From a virus: a stretch of DNA of 64,000 bases. The position numbers and the translations under genes are program-made. This document shows, one piece after another, positions 13,115 to 60,256 of the stretch (position 1 is the stretch's first letter; every line of letters begins with the position of its first letter). The stretch covers positions 18,502-82,501 of the IMG/VR virus record IMGVR_UViG_3300035670_009638; one strand, 5' to 3'. The notes beneath the pieces are model-generated. The model saw nothing but the letters and a program-made list of their open reading frames with translations, did not search any database and was not told the origin of the DNA.

Positions 13115-13759
13115 TCAAACGTAACCTTTTTCTTTCAAAGAAACATGTTTTCCTTGACCGATTATAATATGATCGAGCAGTTCAATTCCAACCATTTTTC
13201 CAACTTCTGAAAGTCTCTTAGTTACTTCAACATCTTGTCTGCTGGGATCAGGATTCCCAGAAGGATGATTATGACAAACAATAACTGAGGCTGCACTTAA
13301 TCGAATTCCTTCTCGAAAAACCTCTCTCGGATGAACAATACTAGAATTTAGTGAACCTTTGAAAACCATTTTTCTTGAAATGATAATATTCTTTGTGTTC
13401 AAGTAAATTGCTTCAAAATGTTCTTGATTCTGTAAAGTTAAATCTTCGAAATACTTAGCTACATCTTCCGGGCTTCTTACAATATAGCTATCTTCTTTTT
13501 TGAATTTTCTTATATAGTTTGCTAGTCCAAATGAAGAAACAATTCTTCTCGCCGAAACTTCACCGATCCCTTCGAATTTTTTAAGTTCATCGATACTCAT
13601 ATCTACTAGTCTACTAATTCCAAGACTCGCCAATTTACCAGTTGATTCTGGATTTGCTTTAGGACCAATTAGAATTGCCAACATATTTTGTAATGAGGTT
13701 CCATCTGGACCATAAAAACTTAATTCTTCTTTTGCTACCTGAAAATGATTATTTTCCAT
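13115..13759 (-). CDS. radC: RadC/JAB-domain protein
   Basis: HhH motif (GIGEV), VHPREVF, HNHPSG.PDPS..D and LLDHIIIG. Confidence 0.95.
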   Translation of the reverse strand: MENNHFQVAKEELSFYGPDGTSLQNMLAILIGPKANPESTGKLASLGISRLVDMSIDELKKFEGIGEVSARRIVSSFGLANYIRKFKKEDSYIVRSPEDVAKYFEDLTLQNQEHFEAIYLNTKNIIISRKMVFKGSLNSSIVHPREVFREGIRLSAASVIVCHNHPSGNPDPSRQDVEVTKRLSEVGKMVGIELLDHIIIGQGKHVSLKEKGYV

Positions 13760-13910: not shown

Positions 13911-14405
13911 TCAAATATGAGCCTCGTTTCCGGTCAAAGGGCAATTTCCACAGTCTTGTGTTAAACATTGAGCACAAGGAAGAATTTTAATTCTACAATT
14001 TGGACAAGACTGACTTTCGAATCTTTGTTCCAATTCAACTTCATTTTCACAATGAGGACACCATTCAGAAACTGTTTGGTTTTTTTGATATTCTTCAAGA
14101 CTAGATTGTGACCAGTATTTCTCAATTCCTTTATGTTCAGAATGACAAGGTCCGCAAAGAACCATATCAAGGAGTTCCAGCCAAATATCTTCGTTCTTTC
14201 TCATATCTAAAATTTTTCCACATTTATCGCATATTTCAAAACCAACATCCATTTCATCAATATCATTCAATAAATCTACTTTTCTTTGAAGTCTTTCTTT
14301 AAACTCTGGACCAGACAAGTTCTCGAATGTTTCCATTAAACTGACCGCATCATCTAGTTCTCTAAATAATTTTCGGGCCAAATCATATTGCAATAAGTTC
14401 CTCAT
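13911..14405 (-). CDS. Cys-rich zinc-binding hypothetical protein
   Basis: Multiple CxxC pairs; overlaps the ardC stop. Confidence 0.65.
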   Translation of the reverse strand: MRNLLQYDLARKLFRELDDAVSLMETFENLSGPEFKERLQRKVDLLNDIDEMDVGFEICDKCGKILDMRKNEDIWLELLDMVLCGPCHSEHKGIEKYWSQSSLEEYQKNQTVSEWCPHCENEVELEQRFESQSCPNCRIKILPCAQCLTQDCGNCPLTGNEAHI

Positions 14406-15255
14406 TTTTAACCTCCTGGAATTCTAAAATATAATCTGCTGCTTTTTGTGCATGTTGTGCCGCATAAATTATCAACTTGGGATCTTTCTTGATTTCAGAT
14501 AACCAACCGTATAAATAAGAAATTGAATTTTGATGTTGTTTTTCATTTTCAATTCCTAAGACTGAAAGAATCATGTTACTACCGATTTCAGCAACTAGCT
14601 CTTCTTTTGAGTAACTTTCTGAACCAAAAACTGACTGATCATCATTAGTAAATCGATTGAGTCTAATATTATGTCCAGTTGAATGAACCATTTCATGGAA
14701 TATCGTAGAGTAATATTCTTCAACTTCTCTAAACTGGCTTAGGTCTGGCATCGTAATGATGTCTAAGGTTGGTGTGTAATAAGCTCGGTTTGAGCCTTTA
14801 TGAATTCGAATTTTCACTTCAGACTTATATGATTGAATCAAGTTCTCTGCTTGTTCGTTGGGGTTATGATGGAAATTCATTTGTTCTTCTTCAATACCTT
14901 CAACATCAGCAGCAGAAAAGACCCTGTAATAACGGAACACTGGATAACTTTCTTCTTCTCCATCTTCATTCTTCTTCTCAACAAATTTCCAAAATGCTAC
15001 CATATGAGACTTACTTCCTTTTTTCAATTTGACCTCTGGATTTTTCTTGTTTAAATCTTGTATTTGGTTAAAGGTTAAATAATTTCCACCATCCAAAAGC
15101 AAAAGATTAATTCCTCGATAAGGCTTCTTGGTTACGTAGTTCTTTGGAATGCCACCTTTCCAAGGTTTTCTCCAAGGAGTAGTTCTACCATTTTGGATGG
15201 CATCTTCAATTTCCTTAATAATTTTCTCCTGAACAATTTGGTAGACTTTTGACAT
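14383..15255 (-). CDS. ardC: ArdC-family anti-restriction ssDNA-binding protein with zincin-like domain
   Basis: PWRKPW, N..T.KPYRGIN, FHEMVHSTGH and YSKEELVAE. Confidence 0.92.
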   Translation of the reverse strand: MSKVYQIVQEKIIKEIEDAIQNGRTTPWRKPWKGGIPKNYVTKKPYRGINLLLLDGGNYLTFNQIQDLNKKNPEVKLKKGSKSHMVAFWKFVEKKNEDGEEESYPVFRYYRVFSAADVEGIEEEQMNFHHNPNEQAENLIQSYKSEVKIRIHKGSNRAYYTPTLDIITMPDLSQFREVEEYYSTIFHEMVHSTGHNIRLNRFTNDDQSVFGSESYSKEELVAEIGSNMILSVLGIENEKQHQNSISYLYGWLSEIKKDPKLIIYAAQHAQKAADYILEFQEVKNEELIAI

Positions 15256-18210: not shown

Positions 18211-18375
18211 GTTAAGTAACCTCCTTGTTAATCTCTCTCATATATTTATATCTGTCTGAGAGAAAATGTAAATTATATTTCTATAATTATTATATAAAAG
18301 ATATTGTAATTCGTACATATATTTTTGCAATTTTCAGATAATTTATAAATAAAAACTAGACTGGATAATTCCAGC

Positions 18376-22581: not shown

Positions 22582-23154
22582 TTAGCTAAAATAATGTTTT
22601 TTACAATAAGCAAGATATTTACTCTTCTCTTCTACGAATGTATCACCATTTCTTGCTACTTTTCCATTAACAATTCTAGCGTTGTATTCTGCTATAGATT
22701 CGCAGTTATCATGCTGACAATTCATAGGAATGTTGGAAATGTTCATTGGCTCTATTTCACTTAATAGGTAACTCGAACCTTCAAAGTAGTCACCAGTGAA
22801 TGTAGTTGATAATCCGTAGAAATGAATATCAATTCCATTTTCAATTGCCCCGTTCAAAATTTTTGATAAAGTCATTTTATTTAAAAATTGAACTTCATCA
22901 ATATAAACTGTTTCAAGTTCTGGAACTGAAAAAAATAAATTAACAAATCTTATGACCTTTTCATGTTCATTAGCATTTATATTGATCGAGAAAATAAATT
23001 GTCCATTTCTACTTTCAATTGTACCAATGGTTCCTGTTTCTTCTTCTAATTTTGCAGAAAGAGTAATACATAAAGTATTATCTTTTTTAATTTTTTCAAT
23101 TAAAGATTTTGATTTCCCTGAACCCATAAGTCCAGTAGTAAAAGTTGCAACCAT
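22582..23154 (-). CDS. tdk: Thymidine kinase
   Basis: G.MGSGKS, IESRNG, IDEVQF, YGL...F.G..F and a C-terminal Zn site (C..HY). Confidence 0.88.
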   Translation of the reverse strand: MVATFTTGLMGSGKSKSLIEKIKKDNTLCITLSAKLEEETGTIGTIESRNGQFIFSININANEHEKVIRFVNLFFSVPELETVYIDEVQFLNKMTLSKILNGAIENGIDIHFYGLSTTFTGDYFEGSSYLLSEIEPMNISNIPMNCQHDNCESIAEYNARIVNGKVARNGDTFVEEKSKYLAYCKKHYFS

Positions 23155-23236
23155 ATTATTTTCCTCCTGGTATAGTAGTTGAATTACATTGTAATTATAT
23201 CTGCACCAGGGAAAACGTAAATTTCAATTCTCATAA

Positions 23237-23462: not shown

Positions 23463-23876
23463 TTAAACCACCTCTACCATATGTTTTCTAAAATCACCGT
23501 CATTTATAGGCTCACCGAGGCCTTCTCTTTTGGTGTTATATAAATACATATAGCACTCAATCAAAGAGCCATCTGAGGCCTTACAGTGACCTAAAATACG
23601 ATGATAAAGGTTCATATCGTTATTTGGTCCATAGTAACCTTCTAGTCTGTCCAAAAGTTTCATGCTAATATTCAAGTATTCAGGTTTGATTGTAATAATC
23701 TCACCAGACACTTTTCCTGTTCCTTTTAGCATGCAAGGAAATCTTCCACATTCATGCATGTATAAATCTTTGTCATCAGCTACAGCAGATTCAATGCTTT
23801 CAATTGCCTCTTGGATTAAAATTTTATGATTGCTCATTCCACTCATTAAAGTACCATATACAAAAAATTTATTCAT
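23463..23876 (-). CDS. Gamma-glutamylcyclotransferase (AIG2-like)
   Basis: FVYGTLM.G..NH, V.GE, LDRLEG and Y.R. Confidence 0.88.
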   Translation of the reverse strand: MNKFFVYGTLMSGMSNHKILIQEAIESIESAVADDKDLYMHECGRFPCMLKGTGKVSGEIITIKPEYLNISMKLLDRLEGYYGPNNDMNLYHRILGHCKASDGSLIECYMYLYNTKREGLGEPINDGDFRKHMVEVV

Positions 23877-23941
23877 TATTTTTCCTCCTCTTATTTTAAT
23901 CTTAAGATTAAGAACTCCCCTTCTGGGGAGCTCTCTTTTTA

Positions 23942-24697
23942 TTAAGCTAGCTTAGCGATGTATCGTTGGGCTCTTTTGAATTGTTTTACTACCGGTTTAT
24001 TATCTGAAAGACCAACTTCTTCTAGCATTTCATCAAGAGCTTCTTCGTTGTTGCTTGACTGTAATGGAGTCATCTCTTGAATATTTGCTGCTGTTTCAAC
24101 TAACTTGTGTGTGAATTCGATCCATGCAAGAATTTCATTAATATTTGTTGTTCCTTGATGATGTCTGAACTCAATTGTTCCATACTTAACGTATGCTCTG
24201 TTGTTTAAATTGTAATATCTTGAACGGATTGAGTTTTTAAATTCTTCGATATTGGAAGCGCTTTCAACATTTTCCATAATTGGAGCAATTGGACTGCAAT
24301 AAGAACTTATTCTTCTTGATGGATTAATGATTGAGTAAATTGCATTTCTTTCATATTTATTATAAAGTCTGTATAAGTTTTTGATTTGGTTTATGTTGAA
24401 ATCGTTGATATCATGATGAACATGTAAACCAGTTTTCTTATTACAACGAACTTTCAACTCTTTTCTTAAAACATGAACTACAGTTTTTAATTCTTCTGTG
24501 TCAGTAAGTGGTGGGCTAACAATCTCCCATCCATTGATTGAAGCATCTGGTTGAACTTTCCATGCATTGTGATTTACTGGGCTTCCGTAACGATCACCTT
24601 CAACATTAATTCCAGCATTTTGTAATGCTTCAATTACCTCATAACGAGATTTACTTGTTGCTACTTCTAATTCTGCTCCAAATTTCATTTGTCTCAT
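23942..24697 (-). CDS. Putative amidoligase (COOH-NH2 ligase, Amidoligase_2)
   Basis: FGAELE, W....D.SI, EIVSPPL, GLHVH, RY..LN and TIEFR.HQGT. Confidence 0.88.
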   Translation of the reverse strand: MRQMKFGAELEVATSKSRYEVIEALQNAGINVEGDRYGSPVNHNAWKVQPDASINGWEIVSPPLTDTEELKTVVHVLRKELKVRCNKKTGLHVHHDINDFNINQIKNLYRLYNKYERNAIYSIINPSRRISSYCSPIAPIMENVESASNIEEFKNSIRSRYYNLNNRAYVKYGTIEFRHHQGTTNINEILAWIEFTHKLVETAANIQEMTPLQSSNNEEALDEMLEEVGLSDNKPVVKQFKRAQRYIAKLA

Positions 24698-24863: not shown

Positions 24864-25136
24864 TTATACGAAACCTCCAGAATCATCTGGAAGTTCGTTA
24901 TCATCATTATCAATATTTTTATCAATTTTTATAGAAGAAGTATTATCGTTATTAACTGGTTTATGTTCAACATATATAGTTTTATTATTAGAATATATAT
25001 CGTTCATTATCAGTTTTCTTAAATAGAATGCAATTCCATTATCTTCTTTTTCACGTTCTAAAGCTTCACAAATCTCAGGATACTTCTTTCTATTGAAGTT
25101 GATCTGGTACAAGAAGTTGTCCTGGTTTTTGTTCAT
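24864..25136 (-). CDS. Putative ParR-like centromere adaptor
   Basis: Small ORF overlapping the parM stop; RHH-like N-terminus and acidic disordered tail. Confidence 0.55.
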   Translation of the reverse strand: MNKNQDNFLYQINFNRKKYPEICEALEREKEDNGIAFYLRKLIMNDIYSNNKTIYVEHKPVNNDNTSSIKIDKNIDNDDNELPDDSGGFV

Positions 25137-25957
25137 GTAAACATCGCCTCAAACTTCTTGCTATACTTTAGAAGTAATCCAACTGCATTAACGTAATAAG
25201 TTGGATAACCATCAAGTTCAGCAGCAGAAACTTTTTCATATCCTAACTGTTCAAGAGATTTTTGTATATCAAAAGCTTTGCCTCCAGTTGTTATGATCGG
25301 ATAATCGTACTCAATTTGTGGACAAGACTTTAGAACGTTGTTCGCAATTTGGAAAGGGCTATTATTGATAGTTCCTCCATTCAATGTTGCGCTATCTTCT
25401 TTACTTATTGCTCCATTTATTAAATATAGAACATTTGTAGTCATAGAGCCTGCATCGATGATTACAAAGTTTTTCTCTTTAGAGAAATGAGCTGCGCCAA
25501 ATCCTTCAGCTGCACATATAATTCTATTAACTTCAAAATCAAAAGGATTTTCATCAATCCAAGATGTTCTTTTTCCTTGGAAGTTTTTTACGAAATAATC
25601 TTTATCGCTGACCATGCTTTTATAAGGACTTGTAAGTATTAGATTAAATTCTCTTTCTCCAGTTTCTTTATATATATTATGTAGAGCTGCAACAAGTCTT
25701 ACTTGAGCTTCATGATGGCCTTTCTTTGTATTTCCAAAATACATTCTTTCTTCTTTTCCACTGTAGAAATTTTTTACAGCTTCACCAACATAGTAGTCTA
25801 AGTTATTGTAGACATACCTTGTCATTCCCTCTGTTTCTTCCAATGGTTTATAAGGATGAATTACGGAAGAGAAAGATCCCATCTTTGTTTCATTTTTCCA
25901 TTCGTACACGTATTTGGTACTAAAATTCCCAACATCAATTACAGTAGTTAGTGTCAA
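25133..25957 (-). CDS. ParM/StbA-family actin-like ATPase
   Basis: IDVGNFSTK, AEG, IDAGSMTTN, TGG and NAVG actin-fold motifs; RBS AGGAGG before TTG 25957. Confidence 0.85.
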   Translation of the reverse strand: MTLTTVIDVGNFSTKYVYEWKNETKMGSFSSVIHPYKPLEETEGMTRYVYNNLDYYVGEAVKNFYSGKEERMYFGNTKKGHHEAQVRLVAALHNIYKETGEREFNLILTSPYKSMVSDKDYFVKNFQGKRTSWIDENPFDFEVNRIICAAEGFGAAHFSKEKNFVIIDAGSMTTNVLYLINGAISKEDSATLNGGTINNSPFQIANNVLKSCPQIEYDYPIITTGGKAFDIQKSLEQLGYEKVSAAELDGYPTYYVNAVGLLLKYSKKFEAMFT

Positions 25958-26208
25958 ACTAAGCAACCTCCTAAATTTATTTATAGTACTCTCATAATCT
26001 ATTATAGGACAAAAACCTAACAAAGTAAAGGGTTTATGTATTTTTTTAAATAACTAATTATTTAAGTTGTTATGTAATAAATTAAATAACTGAATATTAA
26101 GAAATTATATCTTAAATAGGTAGAAAAAAACCCGTATAAATGTTATAATTAGATAAGAAAATAAAAAGACTTACCCTTTTTTAGGATAAGTCTTTCTTCT
26201 GTTGGAGA

Positions 26209-26805
26209 TTAGGCGATCTCTAGATATTGTTCGGCAACTACTTTTTGTAATTTCTTCTTAAGTTTATTCACTCTTTGGTTGGCAGCCTGACGAGTGATAC
26301 CATATTTATCAGCGTAATTTTGAACTGAGAAGGATTTTTTGTCGAGGATAACTTTTAGGAGATCTTCTTCTCCAGGTTCAATGCTTTCTTGAATGATGGC
26401 AGTCAATTCTTTGAAAGCAAGGTTGTCCATTGAGTTGTCATCTGTTGCGAACATATCTTCAAGTTTGAGATCGTCGTCTCCAACAGGAGCGTTCATTGAA
26501 ACTGTAACACCTTGATTTTTCAAGGAGTATTTATGGTAAGTGGCGTTTCTTACACCTTTTTGAAGTTTGTAATATAGATAAGTTGTGAAGCAATTTCCCT
26601 GAGTTGGTTCATATTGCTCATATGCTCTCCATAATTCTAAATCAAGTTCTTGTCTAAAATCTTCTTCTTCTACTGCGTTGAAGATAAACTTGTTGTTTGC
26701 TCTCTTCATAGCTTTAATGACCATTGGAGTAAATTGTTCTCTTACTTCTTCAAAAGTCATTTCCTTGCTAGTGTTATCAGAAAATAAGATTGTCTTTGTC
26801 ATCAT
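26209..26805 (-). CDS. Phage RNA polymerase sigma-70-family factor
   Basis: Region 2-like ED..QE..L.LWRAYEQY......F.TY; SMNAPVGDD; region 4 HTH (ADKYGITRQAANQR). Confidence 0.85.
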   Translation of the reverse strand: MMTKTILFSDNTSKEMTFEEVREQFTPMVIKAMKRANNKFIFNAVEEEDFRQELDLELWRAYEQYEPTQGNCFTTYLYYKLQKGVRNATYHKYSLKNQGVTVSMNAPVGDDDLKLEDMFATDDNSMDNLAFKELTAIIQESIEPGEEDLLKVILDKKSFSVQNYADKYGITRQAANQRVNKLKKKLQKVVAEQYLEIA

Positions 26806-26916
26806 AATAAAGTTCTCCTCCGATTCATTAATTTTTATATCTCACATTTTATTTATATCTGTCTTTTATAAAACGTAAATTAAAAATTAAATAAATTTAA
26901 AAGAATTTTAAAATAA

Positions 26917-29925: not shown

Positions 29926-30291
29926 TTAATATCCATTTTCTTGTCTTTCGTAGTTGACTTTGTTTTTAGCAATATACATGCTGATAATTTCTTCTTCATT
30001 TCTAAAACCAAGAGCTAAACCAACATTTATAGCAAAATGAAGGAAATCAATATATTCTTCTTTAGATAATTTATTTTGGATCTCAAGTTTTTCTGGTCCC
30101 CATTTCAAATACTTTGAAGACCAATCTTTAGCAAACGGTACTTCATGAAGCATTTCATGTAGTTCATCTGTAGCCCATAGCATGTGTTCTTTTATATATT
30201 TAGCTCGTTCTTGCAAGTCCATAGAATCCAAGTCATAACCCATACGTTTTTGAAATTTAAGTTGGGAATCAAGTAAAAATTGAAGTGTCAT
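29926..30291 (-). CDS. All-alpha NTP pyrophosphatase (dimeric dUTPase/dCTPase-like)
   Basis: DELHE, K.W, EEYIDFLHF and Y..KN.VN..RQ..GY; RBS AGGAGG before ATG 30291. Confidence 0.8.
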   Translation of the reverse strand: MTLQFLLDSQLKFQKRMGYDLDSMDLQERAKYIKEHMLWATDELHEMLHEVPFAKDWSSKYLKWGPEKLEIQNKLSKEEYIDFLHFAINVGLALGFRNEEEIISMYIAKNKVNYERQENGY

Positions 30292-30421
30292 AGTAGTTGA
30301 GTTCCTCCTATTCAATAATTTTTTAAATAACTTTTTATTTAACTCACATTGTATTTATATCTGTTTAAATAAAAACGTAAATAATTTATTACATAATTTT
30401 TTAAATAAAAAGTTGGAGATA

Positions 30422-34303: not shown

Positions 34304-35095
34304 CTAGGCTCTATAAGAAAACAATTTTCCTTTAAATGGTTTATCATTTGTGGCACTAAACTTAATACCTTGATGACCAATACCAGTCGCCTCAACTGCG
34401 TGCTTAACAGATGGAAATTCATCTATAACTTCTTTTGTGACTGGGTCTAATAATTGAACTACCTTTCTTCTTGGTGAAGGCTTTCCGAACATTCCATTTC
34501 CTTTCCCAGAATTCACTTTTGAAATTCGTTCTTTGGCTTCTTCAGAATGGTTCTTACCAAGGAATGCTAGTTTAGTTTTAGCTCTAGCTTCATCTGATAA
34601 TTTTCTTCCAGTAAGTTTTCTTCTCATCTTTTCTTTTGCTGCTGGAGGCATCGGAACTCCTTTGTTTGCTGGTTGAACCCCAATACGAGCCTTACTCATC
34701 TTTAACCTTGACTGTTTAGAATGAGTCTTACCAAACATTGGAGCGTTCTCTCCTACTCTTATTTCTCTCATTACTTTAGCAAGCTTTTCTCTTGTTTCTT
34801 CTGTGTGATGGTAACCAGTAATCCCTTCTCCACCATCAGTCATATTCGAAAGTTTAAATCCAAATTCATCTTTATATACAGCAATATAGTAAACTTCGTA
34901 TTCAAGAGCTTCTTCCTCAGTAAGACCTTCATGAAGAATAACAACAGCAACATTCTCGAATCCAAGTTTCTTAATTATATTGTTGAAGTACCTGTTTCTG
35001 CAAGGATAGTATGCTCTTCCTCCCTGACCTTTACCAACATAGAAAGGTTCGTTTGTATCTAATCTAATCCATTCATAAACATAAAAATCATTCAT
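34304..35095 (-). mobile_element. Free-standing GIY-YIG homing endonuclease with NUMOD3/NUMOD1 domains
   Basis: YVY...FYVGKG...R, E, N.TDGGEG; repeated H(S/T)EE...K(I/M)S and N.MFGK. Confidence 0.85.
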
Positions 35096-35250: not shown

Positions 35251-35706
35251 TTAATCTTCAATCTTTTTCTTTTTTCCTTTGAAAATATGAGGCATGCTAA
35301 CAAAAATATTTATATCAACTTTTGAACCAGGAAGATATTTGTTAACAAAATAATTAAAGAATTGAACATCATCTTCAAGATTCAAAAGGTTAGAAGATCT
35401 TTGGAATGCATTGATTTGCTTAACTTTATTGTTTTCATCAAATATGAAATGAATTGTTGAAATACATTCTTCTGAATGATACATAACTTGTCTTTCTGAA
35501 GTTATCCATCCATGTTCATACTTGAATAACAAATGTCTTAGCTGCATTTCAAGTGAAGTATAATATGGTTCATCAGAAGGTGGAAAATCAGTTTTTGTAA
35601 CTGGATTAATCAAGAGGAATGGCTCAAATAGAACCATATCCTCAGTCTCTTTTGAAACTAATAATTCATCAACAACTGGTAGTTCATATTGAAAACTTGT
35701 GAGCAT
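35251..35706 (-). CDS. Miniature thymidylate-synthase-fold protein (putative pyrimidine C5-modifying enzyme)
   Basis: SERQ, ECISTIHF (catalytic-Cys-like), FQRSSNLLNLEDD and MPHIF; TAATG-coupled to the ThyX-like gene. Confidence 0.6.
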   Translation of the reverse strand: MLTSFQYELPVVDELLVSKETEDMVLFEPFLLINPVTKTDFPPSDEPYYTSLEMQLRHLLFKYEHGWITSERQVMYHSEECISTIHFIFDENNKVKQINAFQRSSNLLNLEDDVQFFNYFVNKYLPGSKVDINIFVSMPHIFKGKKKKIED

Positions 35707-36674
35707 TAAAGATTACCTCCACGAAGTTCTTCCATGTATTTTTTAGATTGAGCAGCAAGTAATTCAAGCTCTTTCTTATACTCAGCAAACATCTTCTGGA
35801 AGATTGTTGGACCTTCTGGAGGATTTGTTCCATTAACTTCCTCACGATATGCTTGATAGATAAAGTCTTTCTCGTTCCATTCGAATTTGTCTGAGTTTTC
35901 TTCAGGGAAGTATAAGTTTGTTGCATGTCCATTACGAGCATTTTTAATGTAATGGAATGATGGCATTTCAAAATCAATAATGTTCAAGTGAGCAATTGGA
36001 TATGCTTTACATACTGCTAACCACATTTGATATGCAATGATGTTATCTGATTTTGGTTGAATTTGTCGGTCAATACGTTGCTTAACAAATCCAAGTAAAT
36101 CTTTAAAGTTACAACTTGCATAATAGAAATTGTCATGGTTTTTATTAAGAATTAATCGAGCATCCATAATTGAAATTTGTTTAGAATCAATCATGTCTTG
36201 ATATAACTTTCTGCATTCATAAGTTAATTGTTTATATCGTTCATAGAATTCTGGAGAGTTTTGAATAGCTTCTGGAACTACTGCTGTATGATGGGTTAAC
36301 CAGCGATCTCCAGTACACTGAGCTGAGAATGAGAAAGTTCGATGGCGAATTAAATGAGTTACGTCCTGAACTGAAATACCTTCAATTCGGAAAGTTAAAC
36401 GAATTGTTTCAAGAATAGAAGGTAAAGTTTTGAAAGTGAAAGCTTTCTCGATATCTTCAACTACTTGTTCCATAGAATATTCTTGTCCAGGCTCATCTGC
36501 CCAAGTTGCATTTACATAACCAGGAAGGTAATTAACAATGTTTTGCCATGGAGTATGATCGACTAGGGTAACATTAATATTCTCTAAGTCATTAACAAAC
36601 TCAAAATCTGGTTCTTCACCGAAACGTAATTCCATTGGTAATTTTACAGGTTCAAGATTGTTATTTTTTGGCAT
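35706..36674 (-). CDS. Divergent ThyX-like flavin-dependent enzyme
   Basis: LE...TFRIEGIS....HLIRHRTFSFSAQC and DARLIL; RBS AATCGGAGG before ATG 36674. Confidence 0.8.
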   Translation of the reverse strand: MPKNNNLEPVKLPMELRFGEEPDFEFVNDLENINVTLVDHTPWQNIVNYLPGYVNATWADEPGQEYSMEQVVEDIEKAFTFKTLPSILETIRLTFRIEGISVQDVTHLIRHRTFSFSAQCTGDRWLTHHTAVVPEAIQNSPEFYERYKQLTYECRKLYQDMIDSKQISIMDARLILNKNHDNFYYASCNFKDLLGFVKQRIDRQIQPKSDNIIAYQMWLAVCKAYPIAHLNIIDFEMPSFHYIKNARNGHATNLYFPEENSDKFEWNEKDFIYQAYREEVNGTNPPEGPTIFQKMFAEYKKELELLAAQSKKYMEELRGGNL

Positions 36675-36788
36675 AATAGAAAACCTCCGATTGATTAAAT
36701 AATTTTTTAAATAAGTTATTAAATAACTCACATTGTATTTATATCTGATCAAATAAAAATGTAAATCATTTTTTAAATAATTTTTTAT

Positions 36789-37388
36789 TTAAAACCAAAT
36801 TGTTGTTTTATCTAGGCTAAATCTTTCGCTGTAGTAAGGCTCCTCTGACTTCTTGCCAATTGGAATAAACATGATGGGAACTAGATTTTCTGGAACATCA
36901 AATGAACCTTCAAATTGTTCTCTGTCAAATCCACCAATAATTCCAGTGTTGTAGCCTTTAGATTCGGCTGCATAAACTAATGTCATTGCTGCCAACGGAG
37001 CATTAACAAAAGCATGTTCTAAAGCATCATAGTAATCTTCATAAGCTTTTTCTACTTGTTTCTTTAATTTCGCCTTAACAAAATCATTCATATAACCTTT
37101 TTCGACCAAAGGATTATAAACTTCGTCAAAATTTAGATCAGCATCAATGTCCGCAAGAACTGCCACAACAGCACTAGAATTAATAATTTGATTTTGATAG
37201 TAGGCAATTGGTAGAAGTTGTTCTTTTGATTCTTTACTTTCAAAAACAAAGAACTTCCAATGTTGTAGGTTCCAAGCCGAAGGAGACTTACCTGATAAAG
37301 TTAAAATCTCCTCCAGATCCTCCCTAGGAATCTTAAAATTTGGGTCGAATGAAGTTGTGTTTTTACGATTCAAAATTATCTCTTTCAT
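36789..37388 (-). CDS. Nitroreductase-family flavoprotein
   Basis: R.....FD, SPSAWNLQHWKF, L.YAA...GY.T..IGGFD and IPIGK. Confidence 0.9.
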   Translation of the reverse strand: MKEIILNRKNTTSFDPNFKIPREDLEEILTLSGKSPSAWNLQHWKFFVFESKESKEQLLPIAYYQNQIINSSAVVAVLADIDADLNFDEVYNPLVEKGYMNDFVKAKLKKQVEKAYEDYYDALEHAFVNAPLAAMTLVYAAESKGYNTGIIGGFDREQFEGSFDVPENLVPIMFIPIGKKSEEPYYSERFSLDKTTIWF

Positions 37389-37837
37389 ATCATCTCATCC
37401 ATTGCTTTATTTGCTAATTCATCTGCTCTCTCATTTCCAGGTTCACCGGAATGGCCTTTGACTTTAGTGAATTGGATAAATGCAAACTTATTAATCAAAT
37501 CAATAAGTTCAATCCACAATTCTCTGTTTTCAACTGGAGTTTTAGCTGATGTAACCCATCCATTATTCATCCATTTGACATACCATTTTTGGTTGATGCA
37601 ATTACATACATAAGCTGAATCAGTTCGTACTTCAACAGGGATATTAAACTTTTTCATAGCTCTGAGGCCTTCAATAGCAGCTTTTAATTCCATTTGATTA
37701 TTAGTTACATTTCTAAAACCTTGATACAATTCTTTGGTGTGTTCTCCGTATTGAAGAACAACACCATAACCTCCAATTGAATTAGTTTTACTATTACCTC
37801 TCGAACCGCCATCAACGTAAATTACAACTCTACTCAT
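37385..37837 (-). CDS. rnhA: Ribonuclease HI
   Basis: YVDGGSRGN, TNNQMEL, TDSAY and KVKGHSG.PGNERAD.LA. Confidence 0.95.
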   Translation of the reverse strand: MSRVVIYVDGGSRGNSKTNSIGGYGVVLQYGEHTKELYQGFRNVTNNQMELKAAIEGLRAMKKFNIPVEVRTDSAYVCNCINQKWYVKWMNNGWVTSAKTPVENRELWIELIDLINKFAFIQFTKVKGHSGEPGNERADELANKAMDEMI

Positions 37838-38865
37838 TAAAGAATTCCTCCTTCAATAAGTTCTTTAACAATTTCTGAAACGTGTTTCTCGGTTGTATCA
37901 ATTTTGATTTTGTTTTTATATGCAGAATTATCAAAGTAAAATTCCATAACTGCTTTATGATAATCAAAATCTAGTATTTCATGGTTTGTTTCAATACATC
38001 TTCTTTCTAATTCTTCTGTCGAGCAATCAATATAAATTGCTAAAACACAATCTGATTTTGCAAGTTGGATTTCCATTTCCTTATAAGTTTCTTTTAGATC
38101 GTCGCTTTTTTCAAAAATATCACAATATGCTTGGAAAGATTCGGGTCCTCTATCCATTGTCATATGTTTATATTTTGTTTGTTTATCAATTTCATTGATT
38201 AATGTATCTTTACCAGCTCGATCTACAGCAGAAATAACAATTATTTTTGGAGAAGACTCAAGAATATATTCCATTCTAATTCCTTCCAAATGTTTATATT
38301 TTGAATAAGGAGTTTTATAAGGTTCTCCAGTTCTTAATAGTTCTTTTACTTTTCCTGAACTTAGTCCAAAATTTTCTTTAAAGTATTTGTAAGCTTCTCC
38401 AACAAAATTAAAGAAAATTTGTTTCCCATCAGGCATTATAAGTTTGCATTTCCTTCTTGATGGAGAGGGTTTGCCATACATTCCATTGTTTTTTCCTAAA
38501 ACTCTTTCTTTCTGTTCATCTGACCATTTATTTCCGTAATTTGGATTATCTTGTCCCTTATACATTTCAGAGAATTCAATTCTTGTTTTCTCTGAAATTC
38601 TTTCTCCTTCTTTTTTATTAAATCTGGCTTCACCTAAATTATGGTATCTTTTTGTAAGTATTTCTTCGTATTTAAAAGCTATCATCTTATCATCAAATTC
38701 TTTTACAATTTCAATATCAACACTTTCTTTAAGGTAAGGTCGTTGGTGCCAATCGCCATATGCTCTACCACCAGAACCTTTACCAACATAAAGAACTTCT
38801 CCAGTTTCTTTATCTTTGTGGATATAAACATAATGTTTAGTAGTAATTGAGATTTGTTTAGTCAT
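37837..38865 (-). CDS. GIY-YIG/NUMOD endonuclease fused in frame to a dNMP (thymidylate-kinase-like) kinase
   Basis: N-terminal YVY...YVGKG..R; C-terminal IIVISAVDRAGKDT P-loop and DR motif; internal RBS GGAAGGA with ATG at 38274. Confidence 0.75.
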   Translation of the reverse strand: MTKQISITTKHYVYIHKDKETGEVLYVGKGSGGRAYGDWHQRPYLKESVDIEIVKEFDDKMIAFKYEEILTKRYHNLGEARFNKKEGERISEKTRIEFSEMYKGQDNPNYGNKWSDEQKERVLGKNNGMYGKPSPSRRKCKLIMPDGKQIFFNFVGEAYKYFKENFGLSSGKVKELLRTGEPYKTPYSKYKHLEGIRMEYILESSPKIIVISAVDRAGKDTLINEIDKQTKYKHMTMDRGPESFQAYCDIFEKSDDLKETYKEMEIQLAKSDCVLAIYIDCSTEELERRCIETNHEILDFDYHKAVMEFYFDNSAYKNKIKIDTTEKHVSEIVKELIEGGIL

Positions 38866-39091
38866 AACTCTTATAACCTCCGATTTATTTATTTCTCATA
38901 ACTTTTATATCTGTTATGACTGAAACGTAAATCGAATAGGTTAATAAAATTTCAATTTTATAATAAAAAATGAGCTCAGTTTTCATCAAACTCACTACGT
39001 TAAGACTATTAAGTTGGTTTATATGTAATAAAATTTGGGCATGATATAATATATCCTAAATAGCAAAAAATAAAGCAGAGACAAACTCTGC

Positions 39092-40486
39092 TTATATAAC
39101 TTCTCTAATTGCTTTACCAGATTTACCAGTAAAAATAGATATTTTATTTTCTTCAATAGCTCCAGGAACCATAGGAATTAAATTGCCTTCTTCATACAGC
39201 TCCACAAACTTTTCTGCTTTTGAAATAGATTTTGTAAGATACTCAACAAGTTCAAAATCGCTTTCGAACTTATAAGGATCTTTTGTAATGTTGAATAGTT
39301 GGGACATAAGCTTAGGTAGAACAACAGAATTATCATATTCATTCATTAATACATTGAATGCTGTGTCTCGATATAACTGTTGTAACTCTGGATTTTCAGC
39401 AACTCGTTTCATTTCTTGAATCGCATCATGAGGATTATCTTCATCCATATAAATAGCAAAATTCGGAATATCGATATATCTTACTTCATCTACAGTTTTA
39501 CATTCTTCTGCCCATTCTTTGTCTACAACTAAAATAGCTCCCGCACAAATGGCTTCTTGCATTGTATATTCTAATCGATCACCATAGAAGGACTTATCAA
39601 TTCCTGTTTTGAACTTGAAAAGAGTACAAGCGAATAAGCTTTGATTAAATTTGTTCAGGACTTCTTCTCGTTCAATTCTTCCGTATGTTGGAACAATAGG
39701 ATTTTCATTCTTAGGAAGAGTAGGCTGCAATAAATTATCGCAGTTTGGATGACTTAGGATTTGTTGCTTACAACCAATTCCTGTGTCCATTCCATAAATA
39801 ACCGGCTGTATTCCAGCTTCGTAAACTGCCTCTGAAATATCTAAAAGTCGTCTTGGACCCTTATACAATACAAATCTACCAATATAGGTTAGATTGTTTT
39901 CACGTTTAGAATTCTTATAGAAGTGCTGAAATCTTTTTACGTCAGTCCATAAATGCATTGGGAAAGCTCTGTCTCTTTTAGATGGAAGTTTCTTCACTAA
40001 AGAATTCATATAGTAACTTTCCGAAGAATGGTTATAAACCGCATCAGACTCGTTTATATAAGACCAACAGAATGGAGTTTCTTTTATTGCTTTGACAAAA
40101 GATGTATGTTGCATTTGAACTTTAACTGGAGTAATTTTTTTATACATCTTATGAAACTCAAGAACATCTTCTTTTTTAAGGCCACTATGAGGTTTCGCTG
40201 GGTTGATCAGAATTACTAAATCATACTTTTCGTTGATTTCATTAGTAATTTCATCGATATTCTCTCTTGAGAAAATTGTGTGTTCATGGATATATCCATC
40301 TTTATATTCTGGCTTTTTCCTTTTCCATGGAGCATGGTAGTAGTAAGTATGGAATTCTACATCATTTTTTAATCCCCAACGAAACATTTCCTCGACTGAG
40401 GTTGATTCACCATCAATCAGCCGAGGGTAACCACGAAGTATAGCGACTTTTTTACCAGAATAATTGTTCATATTTAATTCCTCCAT
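39092..40486 (-). CDS. DNA alpha-glucosyltransferase-like GT-B glycosyltransferase
   Basis: Motifs QH, DAVYNHS, YIGRFVLYKG, LEYTMQEAICAG and IYMDED...RDTAFN parallel T4 AGT motifs as I recall them (QH, DVIFSHS, WIGR..WKG, LEYTHLE..ACG, WFDEND). Confidence 0.8.
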   Translation of the reverse strand: MEELNMNNYSGKKVAILRGYPRLIDGESTSVEEMFRWGLKNDVEFHTYYYHAPWKRKKPEYKDGYIHEHTIFSRENIDEITNEINEKYDLVILINPAKPHSGLKKEDVLEFHKMYKKITPVKVQMQHTSFVKAIKETPFCWSYINESDAVYNHSSESYYMNSLVKKLPSKRDRAFPMHLWTDVKRFQHFYKNSKRENNLTYIGRFVLYKGPRRLLDISEAVYEAGIQPVIYGMDTGIGCKQQILSHPNCDNLLQPTLPKNENPIVPTYGRIEREEVLNKFNQSLFACTLFKFKTGIDKSFYGDRLEYTMQEAICAGAILVVDKEWAEECKTVDEVRYIDIPNFAIYMDEDNPHDAIQEMKRVAENPELQQLYRDTAFNVLMNEYDNSVVLPKLMSQLFNITKDPYKFESDFELVEYLTKSISKAEKFVELYEEGNLIPMVPGAIEENKISIFTGKSGKAIREVI

Positions 40487-41046
40487 TATTTAGATTCCTC
40501 AGTAATTTTATCTTCAAGTTTTTGAATTAAACGAGCAACTCTTTCTTGAGCCCCTTCATTAATATCTCTCATTTGGGGTGTTTGATTGCCTAAACTAATT
40601 TCACGATTAGAGTATTGAAGGACTGAAACTGTATCAGCTAATTTAGTGACCAAGTAAGGAATTGTCTCTTGCTTTTCTTCTTCAATGAATTTCTTGTATG
40701 AATCCAAGTATTCTGGCATATTTTGTTCCAAAGCAATTACTTCAGCTTGCTCACAAGCTTCTCTTAATGCAGGATTATTTACTTTTGTGTCATATGGAAT
40801 ATCTCCAACCATTAGTTCTGGAATATCATGAACTGTTGCAAATTCTAAAGCTTTATATTTAATTTCATCACTTAAGTTGAACATTTTAACAATTTTTAAG
40901 ACAGTTGTAATTACATAAAACGAATGTTCGGCAACATTTTCATGTTTAATCTTTGGTCTGTTATTGTATCGAATAATCTCACCAAGACCTAAAATTGTAG
41001 TATCACCTAACGTACGAACTTTACCACGATTGAAATATCCTGACAT
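40486..41046 (-). CDS. HD-domain 5'-deoxynucleotidase (YfbR-like)
   Basis: IRY, ENVAEHSF, HDIPE...GDIP...K and KLAD. Confidence 0.85.
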   Translation of the reverse strand: MSGYFNRGKVRTLGDTTILGLGEIIRYNNRPKIKHENVAEHSFYVITTVLKIVKMFNLSDEIKYKALEFATVHDIPELMVGDIPYDTKVNNPALREACEQAEVIALEQNMPEYLDSYKKFIEEEKQETIPYLVTKLADTVSVLQYSNREISLGNQTPQMRDINEGAQERVARLIQKLEDKITEESK

Positions 41047-41101
41047 ATAGCATTCCTCCGATTGATTTAGTAATTGGGTGGAAGGGATTAAACCCTTCCG
41101 T

Positions 41102-41368
41102 TTAAACTAATCCTCTCTTTTCAAAAATTGAACGAAGTTTTGTTTGGCCAACACCACGAACTTTTTCGATTTCATTACCTTCATCATCAACAAGAACAAA
41201 TGTTGGAGATTACATAACTCCGTATTTTACAGCCAATTCATTAGCTCGATCATCGTCATTAAATAGAATAAGAGTTTCATCTGGTTGAGTCTTTAATTCT
41301 TCTTTTATAAATGAATCTGCCATTTTACAAGGTGTGCAGTTATTTTGTTTAAACATTAGTAATTTCAT
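41102..41368 (-). pseudogene. Thioredoxin/NrdH-like gene with in-frame ochre stop
   Basis: MKLLMFKQNNCTPCK...KYGVM*SPTFVLVDDEGNEIEKVRG...; TAA at 41212-41210 (codon 53 of 88); RBS GGAGG. Confidence 0.8.
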
Positions 41369-41422
41369 AGAAGTTCCTCCAATAAAATATTAAATAAAGT
41401 ATTATTTAATTTATTATTGAAA

Positions 41423-41881
41423 TTATTCAATAAGACCTTCATAATAAATTTCTTCACCAAGAATTGCTGCTTCAAGTTCTTCGACTGTTCGACAGGCTGC
41501 AACTCCAGACTCAGCTAACATCAAGTTAAACATGCCATCTTTTCCAAGAGTAAAAGCAACATAAATTACTGGAATTTTTGAAGCAAAAGCATGACCAGCT
41601 TCAAAAATAGTTCCCATATCTTTTCCATCTGTAATAGCAATTAGGAACTCAGCTCCTTCAATTCCTTTAACATTCATTTCGAAAGATTTCTTACGAACTT
41701 CTGGAGAAGAAATAGGACCGATAGCTGACTGTTTTCGTGGTGAAAAATATGTGAATCCATGTTTTTCTAGTAATGTTTCTACTAAAGCAACACGAGTGAT
41801 TTGATCTGGATTAAAGAACGGTGCTGCAATATAAACATGATGTTTCTTTCCTTCTTTTAATGAACGAGTAGTTTGAGTCAT
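41423..41881 (-). CDS. Nucleoside 2-deoxyribosyltransferase / nucleotide N-hydrolase family
   Basis: YIAAPFF, D.GTIFEAG.A and NLML. Confidence 0.85.
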   Translation of the reverse strand: MTQTTRSLKEGKKHHVYIAAPFFNPDQITRVALVETLLEKHGFTYFSPRKQSAIGPISSPEVRKKSFEMNVKGIEGAEFLIAITDGKDMGTIFEAGHAFASKIPVIYVAFTLGKDGMFNLMLAESGVAACRTVEELEAAILGEEIYYEGLIE

Positions 41882-42050
41882 GATTTATTTCCTCCGATTT
41901 CATATTTTTATTTCGTGAGTATTTATATCTCTCACATTGTATTTATATCTGCTACTTGAAAAATGTAAATTAAAAAACAAAAATTAAATTTAATATATTT
42001 TTCAATTCTGTTATAATAGTTATAACTACTATAATCGGGGGAATTGAATA

Positions 42051-44372: not shown

Positions 44373-44435
44373 TATGTTTCCTCCTCATAAGTTTTCGCTT
44401 CTTTGTATTTATATCTGCTTTAGAGGAAACGTAAA

Positions 44436-57510: not shown

Positions 57511-58338
57511 TTAAATCGCTACATCAGCTTTTTCAATTTTTTCTGGCTTAGTTTTATAAATTAGTTTGAAGTCATCTTCCGTGAAATCATAGAAATTAGT
57601 AATTTCTGGATTTATCCAAAATTCAGGAGCTTCTAATTCTTTTCTACTTAATAGGTCTATTGCTAATTCCTCATGTTTGTTGTATATATGCATATCTCCA
57701 ATAACATGAGTTAAAGTTCCAACTTTCAATCTTAAATGTATTGCTACCATATGCAGCCATATTGAGTACTGAACAACATTCCAATTGTTAGCAACCAAGA
57801 AATCGTTCGATCGTTGTTTCATAATTAAATGTGCTTTTCCACTTTTGATTAATAGCTGAATATGATGAACACATGGTGGCAAGTTCATTTCGTGTAGTTC
57901 GCTCGTATTCCATAATTCTATTTGCAATCTTCGAGAAGTTGGATTTTTCTTACCCTCTCCAAGAATATAGTCCATTTGATTGTCATATCCAAAGACAGGT
58001 TTTGCTACTTGATAACCGTAAGCTTTTCCGATGGAACCAGTTTCATCAGCCCATGCATCCCAGATTGCACCTTTTAAATCTTTAATATTATTTGAACGCT
58101 GGCGATAAATCCAATCAGTTTCATTAAAAGCACTTTTAATTGGAGTTGGCCTAATAGTAAGTGCAGGAAATTCTTTTTCCAAATCATAGACATTAACAAC
58201 TGAAACAATACGTTTTGTTGAAATTGGTGAACCATCATCCCATCGAGCGCGATTGTCAATTTCCCAAGGTTCTTTCATGATTCTTTCTAAATTTTCTTTA
58301 AAAATCTTATCTGCAATAGTCATTATGTTATCCTCCAT
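57511..58338 (-). CDS. thyA: Thymidylate synthase (canonical, dUMP-type)
   Basis: IWDAW, YG.Q, SRR, LPPC, QRSND...N (Asn at the specificity position) and DMHIY. Confidence 0.93.
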   Translation of the reverse strand: MEDNIMTIADKIFKENLERIMKEPWEIDNRARWDDGSPISTKRIVSVVNVYDLEKEFPALTIRPTPIKSAFNETDWIYRQRSNNIKDLKGAIWDAWADETGSIGKAYGYQVAKPVFGYDNQMDYILGEGKKNPTSRRLQIELWNTSELHEMNLPPCVHHIQLLIKSGKAHLIMKQRSNDFLVANNWNVVQYSIWLHMVAIHLRLKVGTLTHVIGDMHIYNKHEELAIDLLSRKELEAPEFWINPEITNFYDFTEDDFKLIYKTKPEKIEKADVAI

Positions 58339-58376
58339 AATTTTTGTTATTTTATCTGTTCTTTAAAAAATGTAAA

Positions 58377-60127: not shown

Positions 60128-60256
60128 TTTTATTTCTCCCCTTATATGTTTAAAGTCAAATCTATATGAATTTTCGGAATATTCTTATTTGTTATATTTA
60201 TATCTGCTCGACTTTAAAACGTAAAAAGATAATTGGAAGAATTTTGAAATTATTTT

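Follow-up and report, generated by a model that had tools for sequence, protein, structure and literature searches.

A miniature thymidylate synthase-fold protein in a predicted cytosine-hypermodification cluster of a pBS32-type phage relative

The window analysed here is a stretch of 64 kb out of the 82.5-kb IMG/VR virus record IMGVR_UViG_3300035670_009638, and its DNA is 87% identical to that of Geobacillus phage GR1 (79 kb) over a cluster of co-oriented minus-strand genes at positions 35251–41881. One of these genes encodes a protein of only 151 amino acids, called mini-TS here, which is modelled as a complete thymidylate synthase (TS) fold and which is predicted, with good confidence, to modify C5 of deoxycytidine monophosphate (dCMP) in some way. 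Together with a deoxynucleoside monophosphate (dNMP) kinase and a glycosyltransferase (GT) of the T4 DNA alpha-glucosyltransferase (AGT) family, mini-TS would form a pathway that turns dCMP into 5-hydroxy-dCMP, which is then phosphorylated, built into the DNA and glycosylated there, a reading to which we give an even chance. A broader proposal is held only tentatively: that two uncharacterised enzyme families are involved, namely TS-fold proteins of about 150 residues, often fused to a kinase, which make a C5-modified dCMP, and viral paralogues of ThyX with an active-site Cys, which make a pyrimidine nucleotide other than thymidine monophosphate (dTMP).

35251–35706, minus strand: mini-TS, 151 amino acids, predicted 5-hydroxy-dCMP synthase-like enzyme modifying C5 of dCMP (from its AlphaFold2 fold and signature residues)

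An AlphaFold model of mini-TS, built on an alignment of 45 sequences, reached a predicted local distance difference test (pLDDT) value of 94.8, and a Foldseek search of the PDB matched this model to the TS superfamily only. Here, the first match was the dCMP hydroxylase AfhB of phage HY126 (9iqu) and the second a related flavin monooxygenase with dCMP and flavin adenine dinucleotide (9iqc), followed by thymidylate synthases and the T4 dCMP hydroxymethylase. VIA-align gave Z scores of 9.8 for MilA and AfhB compared with 8.5–9.4 for classical thymidylate synthases. A sequence-only reading of this stretch had already seen a TS fold in the protein, which model, Foldseek and VIA-align bear out. Since 137–142 of the 151 residues (141 for 9iqu) align across the whole target chain, mini-TS appears to be a stripped-down version of the entire fold and not a fragment of it.

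On sequence level, mini-TS falls into PHROG 35203, annotated as 'unknown', and RB69 gp48 into phrog_160. Because a membership in PF00303 or phrog_160 is lacking at this level, mini-TS is best filed as a separate minimal branch and not within the ThyA family. A profile search of 1.84 billion (1.84e9) representative proteins retrieved 93 mini-TS relatives, and classical thymidylate synthases were absent among the matches; a profile search of genome contigs gave no match.

Six residues are invariant in 36 diverse members of the family: R72, C81, R103, S104, D113, and H140. Their equivalents were read off after aligning the family profile with the canonical ThyA of the window, RB69 gp48 and phage G gp319. 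C81 would be the catalytic cysteine (Cys146 equivalent), R103 and S104 the phosphate-binding RS (R166/S167) of the Q-R-S-x-D motif, and H140 the counterpart of H207. D113 would be the Asp which replaces N177 in dCMP-specific enzymes and is also present in RB69 gp48 and phage G gp319, an alignment that is weak (E ~3e-5 in a tiny database). Furthermore, the FQRSSN of mini-TS, with N106, matches the RSQN of RB69 gp48, i.e., an Asn at the D169 position, and all 45 Bacillus-type mini-TS sequences have this Asn. TS homologues carrying N177D and D169N make 5-hydroxy-dCMP using flavin and O2; a phage dNMP kinase takes over this product for phosphorylation, and the resulting 5-hydroxycytosine is the substrate of DNA glycosyltransferases (Lee et al., PMC13326640). 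The N106/D113 signature of mini-TS points to such a hydroxylase chemistry and falls short of proving it, because outside the Bacillus-type subfamily N106 is not invariant.

37837–38274, minus strand: P-loop dNMP kinase with its own ribosome-binding site GGAAGGA and an ATG at 38274 (phrog_761, 2e-10)

A second line of evidence is provided by gene fusions. About one third of the mini-TS representatives are ~290 amino acids long and have a C-terminal TS domain, and in viral loci these long proteins are fusions of a P-loop kinase and mini-TS. Another 50 viral records were searched with the mini-TS profile (A1), of which 18 contain such fusions, all as open frames of 296–326 amino acids. The kinase half of one of them, from contig L033, aligns with the window kinase and has the GK and DRGP motifs in common with it; a search with the L033 fusion itself returned only its own contig. 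Because of this Rosetta-stone link, the product of mini-TS is predicted to be a nucleoside monophosphate that is handed to a phrog_761-type kinase, which strengthens the earlier placement of the kinase in a modification cluster. The same PHROG contains RB69p045, a gene of the 5-hydroxycytosine cluster of RB69.

39092–40486, minus strand: predicted DNA alpha-glucosyltransferase of the T4 AGT family, extended by ~80 amino acids at its C-terminus (PDB profile match, phrog_2888)

The third component is the GT, for which a profile (A4) was built from five sequences, i.e., those of the window, the related contig L006, GR1, and gp313 and gp306 of phage G. Against the whole PDB, the sole match of this profile was T4 AGT (1y6f/1y8z/1xv5; E 8e-26), with positions 8–384 aligned to residues 5–393 of the 403-residue chain, which is the full GT-B core. 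The protein belongs to phrog_2888 (alpha-glucosyltransferase, 7e-51), and tblastn retrieved more than 400 T4-like a-gt genes as well as gp313 and gp306 at 31–34% identity. By these comparisons, the GT is a true, full-length homologue of the T4 enzyme; it was called AGT-like before, and its affinity is indeed with T4 AGT and not with glycosyltransferases acting on cell wall or protein. There are good grounds to expect that it acts on DNA.

The closest other relatives of the GT, gp313 and gp306, adjoin a ThyA-type enzyme with the dCMP-type Asp. In Bacillus phage G (NC_023719.1 218845–240140), this enzyme, gp319, retains D169, and the further neighbours of the two AGT-family genes are a dCMP deaminase, a kinase, an HAD phosphatase and a glucose-1-phosphate thymidylyltransferase, a sugar-nucleotide gene. 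The region looks like a cluster for glycosylated 5-hydroxymethylcytosine (5hmC). Phage G gp315 (331 amino acids, phrog_761) was considered as a kinase–mini-TS fusion and rejected, as its C-terminal half gave no match to the mini-TS profile; the N-terminal half is a kinase, and the C-terminal half resembles by eye a family-4 uracil-DNA glycosylase.

Two further genes complete the proposed pathway.

29926–30315, minus strand: all-alpha NTP pyrophosphatase (NTP-PPase) of the dUTPase_2 type (PF08761 1e-9, phrog_173 1e-16)
36789–37388, minus strand: nitroreductase-family flavoprotein, candidate NAD(P)H:flavin reductase (PF00881 1e-22; NfsB-type model below cut-off)

The chemistry proposed for each step is read from computed protein identities, folds, catalytic-residue conservation, the gene fusion, synteny and promoters. 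The NTP-PPase, whose phrog_173 is common to the dCTPase-dUTPase gp56 of RB69 and T4 (RB69 gp56 at 1e-45), would hydrolyse dCTP and supply dCMP. This would be bound by mini-TS, Cys81 would attack C6, and an oxygen-bearing group would be placed at C5. Judged from fold, signature residues and neighbours, the likeliest product would be 5-hydroxy-dCMP, formed from reduced flavin and O2. The flavin may be reduced by the adjacent nitroreductase-family protein, which lies directly upstream of the ThyX-like and mini-TS genes in five of six lineages, or by host reductases. The P-loop kinase would then phosphorylate the product, as supported by the fusions found elsewhere, the phage DnaE-type polymerase would incorporate it, and the AGT-family enzyme, for which the homology is computed, would add a hexose to the modified cytosine in the DNA. 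The ThyX paralogue would be a separate flavin enzyme, which makes either dTMP or a second C5-modified pyrimidine and which mini-TS does not generally require. All units would be driven by SigN-type promoters along with the replication genes.

A flavin-assisted route to a hydroxylated and then glycosylated pyrimidine had also been proposed in the sequence-only reading, as a combination fitting no characterised pathway. The latter no longer holds, since the pathway type now has a published precedent in RB69, DLP3 and HY126 (PMC13326640). The route itself gains from this precedent and from the mini-TS signature, and the flavin-using enzyme and the identity of the modified base are our inference.

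Several observations weigh against the 5-hydroxy-dCMP pathway. The fold scores of mini-TS tie within one Z unit and do not separate hydroxylase, hydroxymethylase and TS. No sequence or profile match was found in Pfam, NCBIfam or the PDB, neither to TS nor to AfhB, and hhalign of profile A1 with RB69 gp48 gave a short alignment with a probability of only 5%. Across the wider family, the position of N106 is occupied by N, D or H, and with 151 amino acids the protein is without most of the cofactor pocket for flavin or folate. The window kinase has AVDRAGKD as its Walker A motif; the first glycine of GVDRSGK(D/S/G), the form in its relatives, is replaced by Ala, and this copy may be weakened. To our knowledge, the HD-domain 5'-deoxynucleotidase of the cluster has no role in the T4 and RB69 pathways. 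Finally, the GT was found in only four GR1-like lineages and the nitroreductase in only five, as follows.

Window: AGT present, nitroreductase present
GR1: AGT present, nitroreductase present
L006/L007: AGT present, nitroreductase present
L010: AGT present, nitroreductase present
L008: contig ends before the AGT position, nitroreductase present
pBS32-like complete record (L009): AGT absent, nitroreductase absent

Plasmid pBS32 of Bacillus subtilis 3610 likewise lacks both genes, and in the pBS32-like record a GIY-YIG gene and a small open reading frame (ORF) occupy their places. A search of five related records, including the complete G001 and G007, detected no AGT homologue, and no AGT, GT1 or GT2 match was obtained in five marine records that carry kinase–mini-TS fusions. 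Because the GT was found in GR1-like lineages only and is absent from the pBS32-like and the tested marine records, glycosylation appears to be an add-on of the GR1 subclade, and mini-TS together with the kinase would be the core. On pBS32, the modified base would accordingly be expected without a sugar.

The gene upstream of mini-TS encodes the ThyX paralogue.

35706–36674, minus strand: ThyX paralogue, 322 amino acids (PF02511, ThyX fold)

Its start was set at the ATG at 36674 and not at an upstream TTG, because a promoter (36739–36765) lies inside the longer frame and the N-termini of the family all read MPKNNN. The protein passes the PF02511 cut-off (65.4 vs. 24.8 bits) and stays below the thyX equivalog level of TIGR02170 (46.3 vs. 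87.9 bits). Its model has a ThyX fold, with PolB as top Foldseek match (1.6e-10) followed by ThyX of Mycobacterium tuberculosis and T. maritima; atypical ThyX is among the top matches. The family is large (871 homologues); among the phages in the collection, only GR1 has a paralogue of more than 33% identity. A comparison of 20 diverse members shows Cys without exception at the place of Ser88 in RHR-x7-S, differing residues at the His, and strong conservation of ~90 additional amino acids at the C-terminus. The R-x-R motif and the equivalents of Arg147 and Arg174 are kept. On balance, it is probable that the paralogue is not a plain dTMP synthase.

This question is linked to the canonical enzymes for thymidylate, both of which are found outside the cluster.

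57511–58338, minus strand: canonical ThyA, context only and outside the conserved module (PF00303 1.5e-62)
22582–23154: tdk

The window ThyA has B. subtilis ThyA as best PDB match (E 3e-55), scores above the TIGR03284 cut-off and keeps L143, D169, and N177. From thyA and tdk it had been concluded that the cluster enzymes are not needed for dTMP. Both genes are present, and the conclusion is limited to this genome, because ThyA is absent from GR1 and from the complete pBS32-like record (G001), where the ThyX paralogue is the sole TS-like gene. The latter finding fits a reading without any DNA modification, in which the paralogue is a divergent dTMP synthase, mini-TS a degenerate remnant or a regulator, and the GT acts off DNA, the module merely boosting the dNTP supply for plasmid or phage replication. 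In line with it, pBS32 can dispense with the GT, and the literature searched on this plasmid, which has been studied for years, mentions no odd DNA. Nevertheless, a remnant would hardly agree with the full catalytic set of mini-TS, which is strongly conserved across distant viruses and fused to a kinase. The only solved relative of the GT is a DNA glucosyltransferase, and the paralogue, in addition to its score below the equivalog cut-off, coexists with canonical enzymes, i.e., with ThyA in the window and with canonical ThyX in two marine records (G004, G005). This reading is therefore considered very unlikely.

A second alternative takes the ThyX paralogue and mini-TS as partners. The start of the mini-TS gene shares one nucleotide with the stop of the ThyX-like gene (TAATG), and the two are found side by side in L033 and in all Bacillus-type relatives. 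In such a two-component carbon transfer, the paralogue would load the methylene group of methylenetetrahydrofolate on the N5 of the flavin and, with mini-TS or its own Cys120, make 5-hydroxymethyl- or 5-methyl-dCMP, and the AGT would glucosylate 5hmC as in T4. In favour of this, mini-TS lacks a cofactor pocket of its own, and T4 AGT, the only solved relative of the GT, acts on 5hmC. Moreover, the invariant Cys at ThyX Ser88 is located next to C6 of the pyrimidine, and a paralogue found alongside canonical ThyX or ThyA is unlikely to be a mere dTMP synthase. However, most genomes with the paralogue have no detectable mini-TS: within 8 kb, it was found at 11 of 80 ThyX-paralogue loci, and over whole records in 18 of 50, but in only one of the ten complete ones. 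The marine kinase–mini-TS gene lies 6–20 kb from the paralogue, R200, the putative equivalent of the Arg reading uracil O4 in ThyX, is kept, and there is no solved case of a ThyX passing a flavin adduct to another protein. A complex prediction of the two proteins scored 0.00, which gives no verdict and is evidence neither way. Hence, a carbon transfer of this type is regarded as unlikely. What stands of the pair proposed in the sequence-only reading is the adjacency and the overlap in this genome, not an obligatory partnership.

The companions of the paralogue are different ones. In the window, they comprise two genes of the cluster in addition to the NTP-PPase.

41423–41881, minus strand: nucleoside 2-deoxyribosyltransferase (NDT; PF05014 4e-14, phrog_7995 6e-48)
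40486–41046, minus strand: HD-domain YfbR-like 5'-deoxynucleotidase (PF12917 3e-19, phrog_7076 1e-37)

Counting same-strand genes at 80 viral loci of the ThyX paralogue gave the following neighbours.

NDT of phrog_7995, directly downstream: 77 of 80 loci
dUTPase_2-type NTP-PPase: 69 of 80 loci, in some with one copy fused to an NT5C 5'-deoxynucleotidase
DnaE-type polymerase: 45 of 80 loci
NAD-dependent sugar epimerase: 41 of 80 loci
HD 5'-deoxynucleotidase: 28 of 80 loci
Canonical ThyX: at least 18 of 80 loci

The earlier proposal that HD, NDT and NTP-PPase belong to the cluster is supported by this conservation, and the paralogue would be a separate enzyme tied to NDT, nucleotidase and NTP-PPase, not an obligatory partner of mini-TS. 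In marine records (L017–L091; e.g., L058:6424–10470 and L043:7161–11322), the module consists of a 78-amino acid ORF, a dUTPase_2-like NTP-PPase, a dUTPase_2-NT5C fusion, the ThyX paralogue and NDT, often followed by the NAD-dependent sugar epimerase and the DnaE-type polymerase; an Fpg/Nei glycosylase is present in 21 loci.

Such companions recall the dTTPase/dTMPase set of phages with 5-hydroxymethyluracil (5hmU). This leads to a third alternative, a base derived from uracil or thymine, in which the paralogue acts as a flavin-dependent dUMP hydroxymethylase or similar, the GT modifies 5hmU, and mini-TS has a side role, with NTP-PPase, HD nucleotidase and NDT in charge of clearing and recycling dTTP and dTMP. 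The uracil-type Arg residues kept in the paralogue, its tight linkage to these pool enzymes and its coexistence with canonical ThyX would all suit this idea. On the contrary, these genomes also encode a canonical ThyA or ThyX, as well as tdk, which speaks against a removal of thymine, the known AGT relatives modify cytosine derivatives and adjoin dCMP-type TS homologues, and mini-TS carries the cytosine-type Asp instead of Asn. A uracil-derived base is thus distinctly unlikely.

The genes named in the sequence-only reading were all recovered on the minus strand where it had placed them, using Pfam, PHROG and NCBIfam scans. The closest PDB entry to NDT is the N-deoxyribosyltransferase 6evs, its Glu motif (..GT.FE.G..) is kept, and its PHROG is the one of the NDTs following the ThyX-like gene in marine records (L048 also phrog_7995). 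The HD nucleotidase scores 43 bits with NF003009, below the cut-off, and matches YfbR (2paq, 2e-4) and DatZ (0.04) in the PDB. Its stop overlaps the start of the GT by one base, confirming the coupling of both genes seen before. Overlaps of one base are also found for kinase/RNase H, as for ThyX-like/mini-TS, and one of four bases for RNase H/nitroreductase. The remaining genes of the cluster and its flank are the following.

41102–41368, minus strand: broken thioredoxin gene, open only at 41210–41368 (52 amino acids; PF00085 and phrog_22 weak)
37385–37837, minus strand: RNase HI (PF00075 2e-34)
38275–38865, minus strand: GIY-YIG/NUMOD3 homing-endonuclease module, in frame with the downstream kinase (GIY-YIG motif, weak NUMOD3 match)
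34304–35095: second GIY-YIG/NUMOD3 homing endonuclease, between mini-TS and Pol III

The thioredoxin gene had been described as broken, which is explained by a nonsense mutation: compared with GR1 and L006, codon 53 is changed from CAA to TAA, and the remainder is in frame to the ancestral stop. The assignment of a dNMP kinase stood as well, but it had overlooked the endonuclease in the same frame. The ORF 37837–38865 encodes 342 amino acids, of which the N-terminal 197 represent the endonuclease and the C-terminal 145 the kinase. In GR1, L006 and pBS32, the kinase, with which that of the window aligns, is standalone, and the fused endonuclease module is absent from all three and present in L010. 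Furthermore, the window kinase is only 54% identical to that of GR1, compared with ~90% for its neighbours. The two endonucleases and ThyA look like recent mobile insertions.

Concerning the genome as a whole, the backbone of the window recurs on a set of 41 Bacillus plasmids, to which pLS32 and pBS32 (of B. subtilis NCIB 3610) belong; the mini-TS of pBS32 is WP_013603329. The common order is NDT-Trx-HD ... kinase-RNase H-ThyX-like-small ORF (mini-TS)-Pol III alpha-dUTPase-Trx-GMK-RusA-sigma factor-actin-like protein (AlfA). Because backbone and gene order are common to these plasmids, the element appears to be a pBS32-type phage-plasmid relative. Its G+C content is 30–36% over the whole window, which is reminiscent of T4; the GR1 host Geobacillus stearothermophilus (ATCC 10149) presumably has a much higher one. 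No paper on GR1 or on a thymidylate synthase of pBS32 was found in the literature.

A promoter consensus has been derived from the SigN promoters of pBS32 (Table 2 in PMC6751061). Searching with the pattern TTTACR-N14-17-AGATAWAA gave 18 matches in the window vs. 0.07 expected, on the minus strand only and spanning 12000–62200, which marks the phage as a relative of pBS32 and pLS32. Three of them head the transcription units into which the module genes are grouped.

41943–41969, minus strand: SigN-type promoter just upstream of NDT, heading the NDT-Trx-HD-GT unit
38905–38931, minus strand: SigN-type promoter heading the endonuclease/kinase-RNase H-nitroreductase unit
36739–36765, minus strand: SigN-type promoter heading the ThyX-like/mini-TS unit
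30355–30381, minus strand: SigN-type promoter upstream of the NTP-PPase
58350–58376, minus strand: SigN-type promoter upstream of ThyA
18246–18272, 23195–23221, 26853–26879, 44409–44435 and 60198–60225, minus strand: further SigN-type promoters
26209–26805: SigN-like sigma factor
25133–26023: actin-like segregation protein

SigN induces the pBS32 operons zpcXYZ and zpdBCDEF 176–309-fold (PMC6751061), and these are homologous to the module operons of the window. Promoters and homologous operons together suggest that the module is co-regulated with the replication genes. Elsewhere in the window, a pair of Amidoligase_2 and gamma-glutamyl cyclotransferase (GGACT) genes (23463–24697) adjoins tdk and is kept in GR1; it is not counted as part of the module here. 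An ArdC-N/zincin MPTase-PolyVal protein, which is anti-restriction-like (14383–15255), and a RadC-like JAB protein (13115–13759) are also encoded.

The pathway type proposed here is already known from T4 and, since 2025–26, from RB69, DLP3, and HY126. With RB69 gp48, DLP3 gp80 and HY126 AfhB (9iqu/9iqc; PMC13326640), mini-TS shares the TS fold and would share the catalytic Cys, the Asp at the N177 position and, in its Bacillus-type subfamily, an Asn corresponding to D169N. A dedicated dNMP kinase, a gp56-type NTP-PPase, a DNA glycosyltransferase acting after replication (here by homology) and a flavoprotein nearby are common features as well. In contrast, mini-TS has 151 instead of 217–238 amino acids, no detectable sequence similarity and a PHROG of its own. 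Those phages use arabinosyl- or glycosyltransferases, whereas the window contains no NDP-arabinose genes and its GT belongs to the T4 AGT family, not to the RB69 or DLP3 types. Moreover, the host would be Gram-positive, the phage is a temperate, plasmid-like one of siphovirus type, and ThyX paralogue, NDT and HD are extra. The relation to T4 (gp42, gp1, gp56, AGT 1xv5/1y6f) is one of logic, in that a dNMP is modified and phosphorylated, the canonical dNTP depleted and the DNA glycosylated, and of full-length homology in the case of the AGT, apart from the ~80 additional residues of the GT tail. Unlike T4, the window lacks a gp42-type (PF00303) hydroxymethylase, and unlike gp42, mini-TS has no folate-binding half and would have Asn instead of Asp at position 169.

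The ThyX paralogue resembles ThyX and the UMP/dUMP methylase PolB (4p5a/4p5b) in fold, R-x-R motif, Arg147 and Arg174 equivalents and a PF02511 score above cut-off. It differs in the Cys for Ser88, the variable His, the ~90-residue extension, the sub-equivalog score and the canonical ThyX or ThyA alongside. Gene order and promoter consensus are those of pBS32, with its zpc/zpd 'nucleotide synthesis' operons in the SigN regulon, and of pLS32; in contrast to the window, pBS32 has no AGT, nitroreductase or ThyA. Moreover, GR1 has been isolated as a phage, and pBS32 counts as a plasmid that harbours a defective prophage.

New are the minimal family of TS-fold proteins, which sequence searches miss and which frequently carry a fused kinase, the combination of this family with an AGT-type enzyme in a temperate or plasmid-like phage of Gram-positive bacteria, the large family of Cys-bearing ThyX paralogues with NDT, nucleotidase and NTP-PPase as companions, and the presence of the module core on pBS32 of a model organism. 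Since these core genes are under inducible SigN on pBS32 and GR1 has been cultured, the predictions are accessible to standard genetics and to liquid chromatography-mass spectrometry.

If the proposed pathway is true, hypermodification by 5-hydroxycytosine or glycosyl-cytosine would extend from the Gram-negative T4-like myoviruses to temperate, plasmid-like phages of Bacillaceae, and mini-TS would be the smallest known working TS fold. The finding further points to a large, unstudied family of viral ThyX paralogues; if these make a pyrimidine nucleotide other than dTMP, hypermodification of DNA would for the first time be the task of an enzyme of the ThyX family. Should the proposals for both families hold, modified bases would have gone unnoticed in these phages, in many marine viruses and on pBS32 of B. 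subtilis 3610. Such modified DNA would then bear on the hyper-replication of pBS32 and the cell death that follow DNA damage, as well as on the evasion of restriction.

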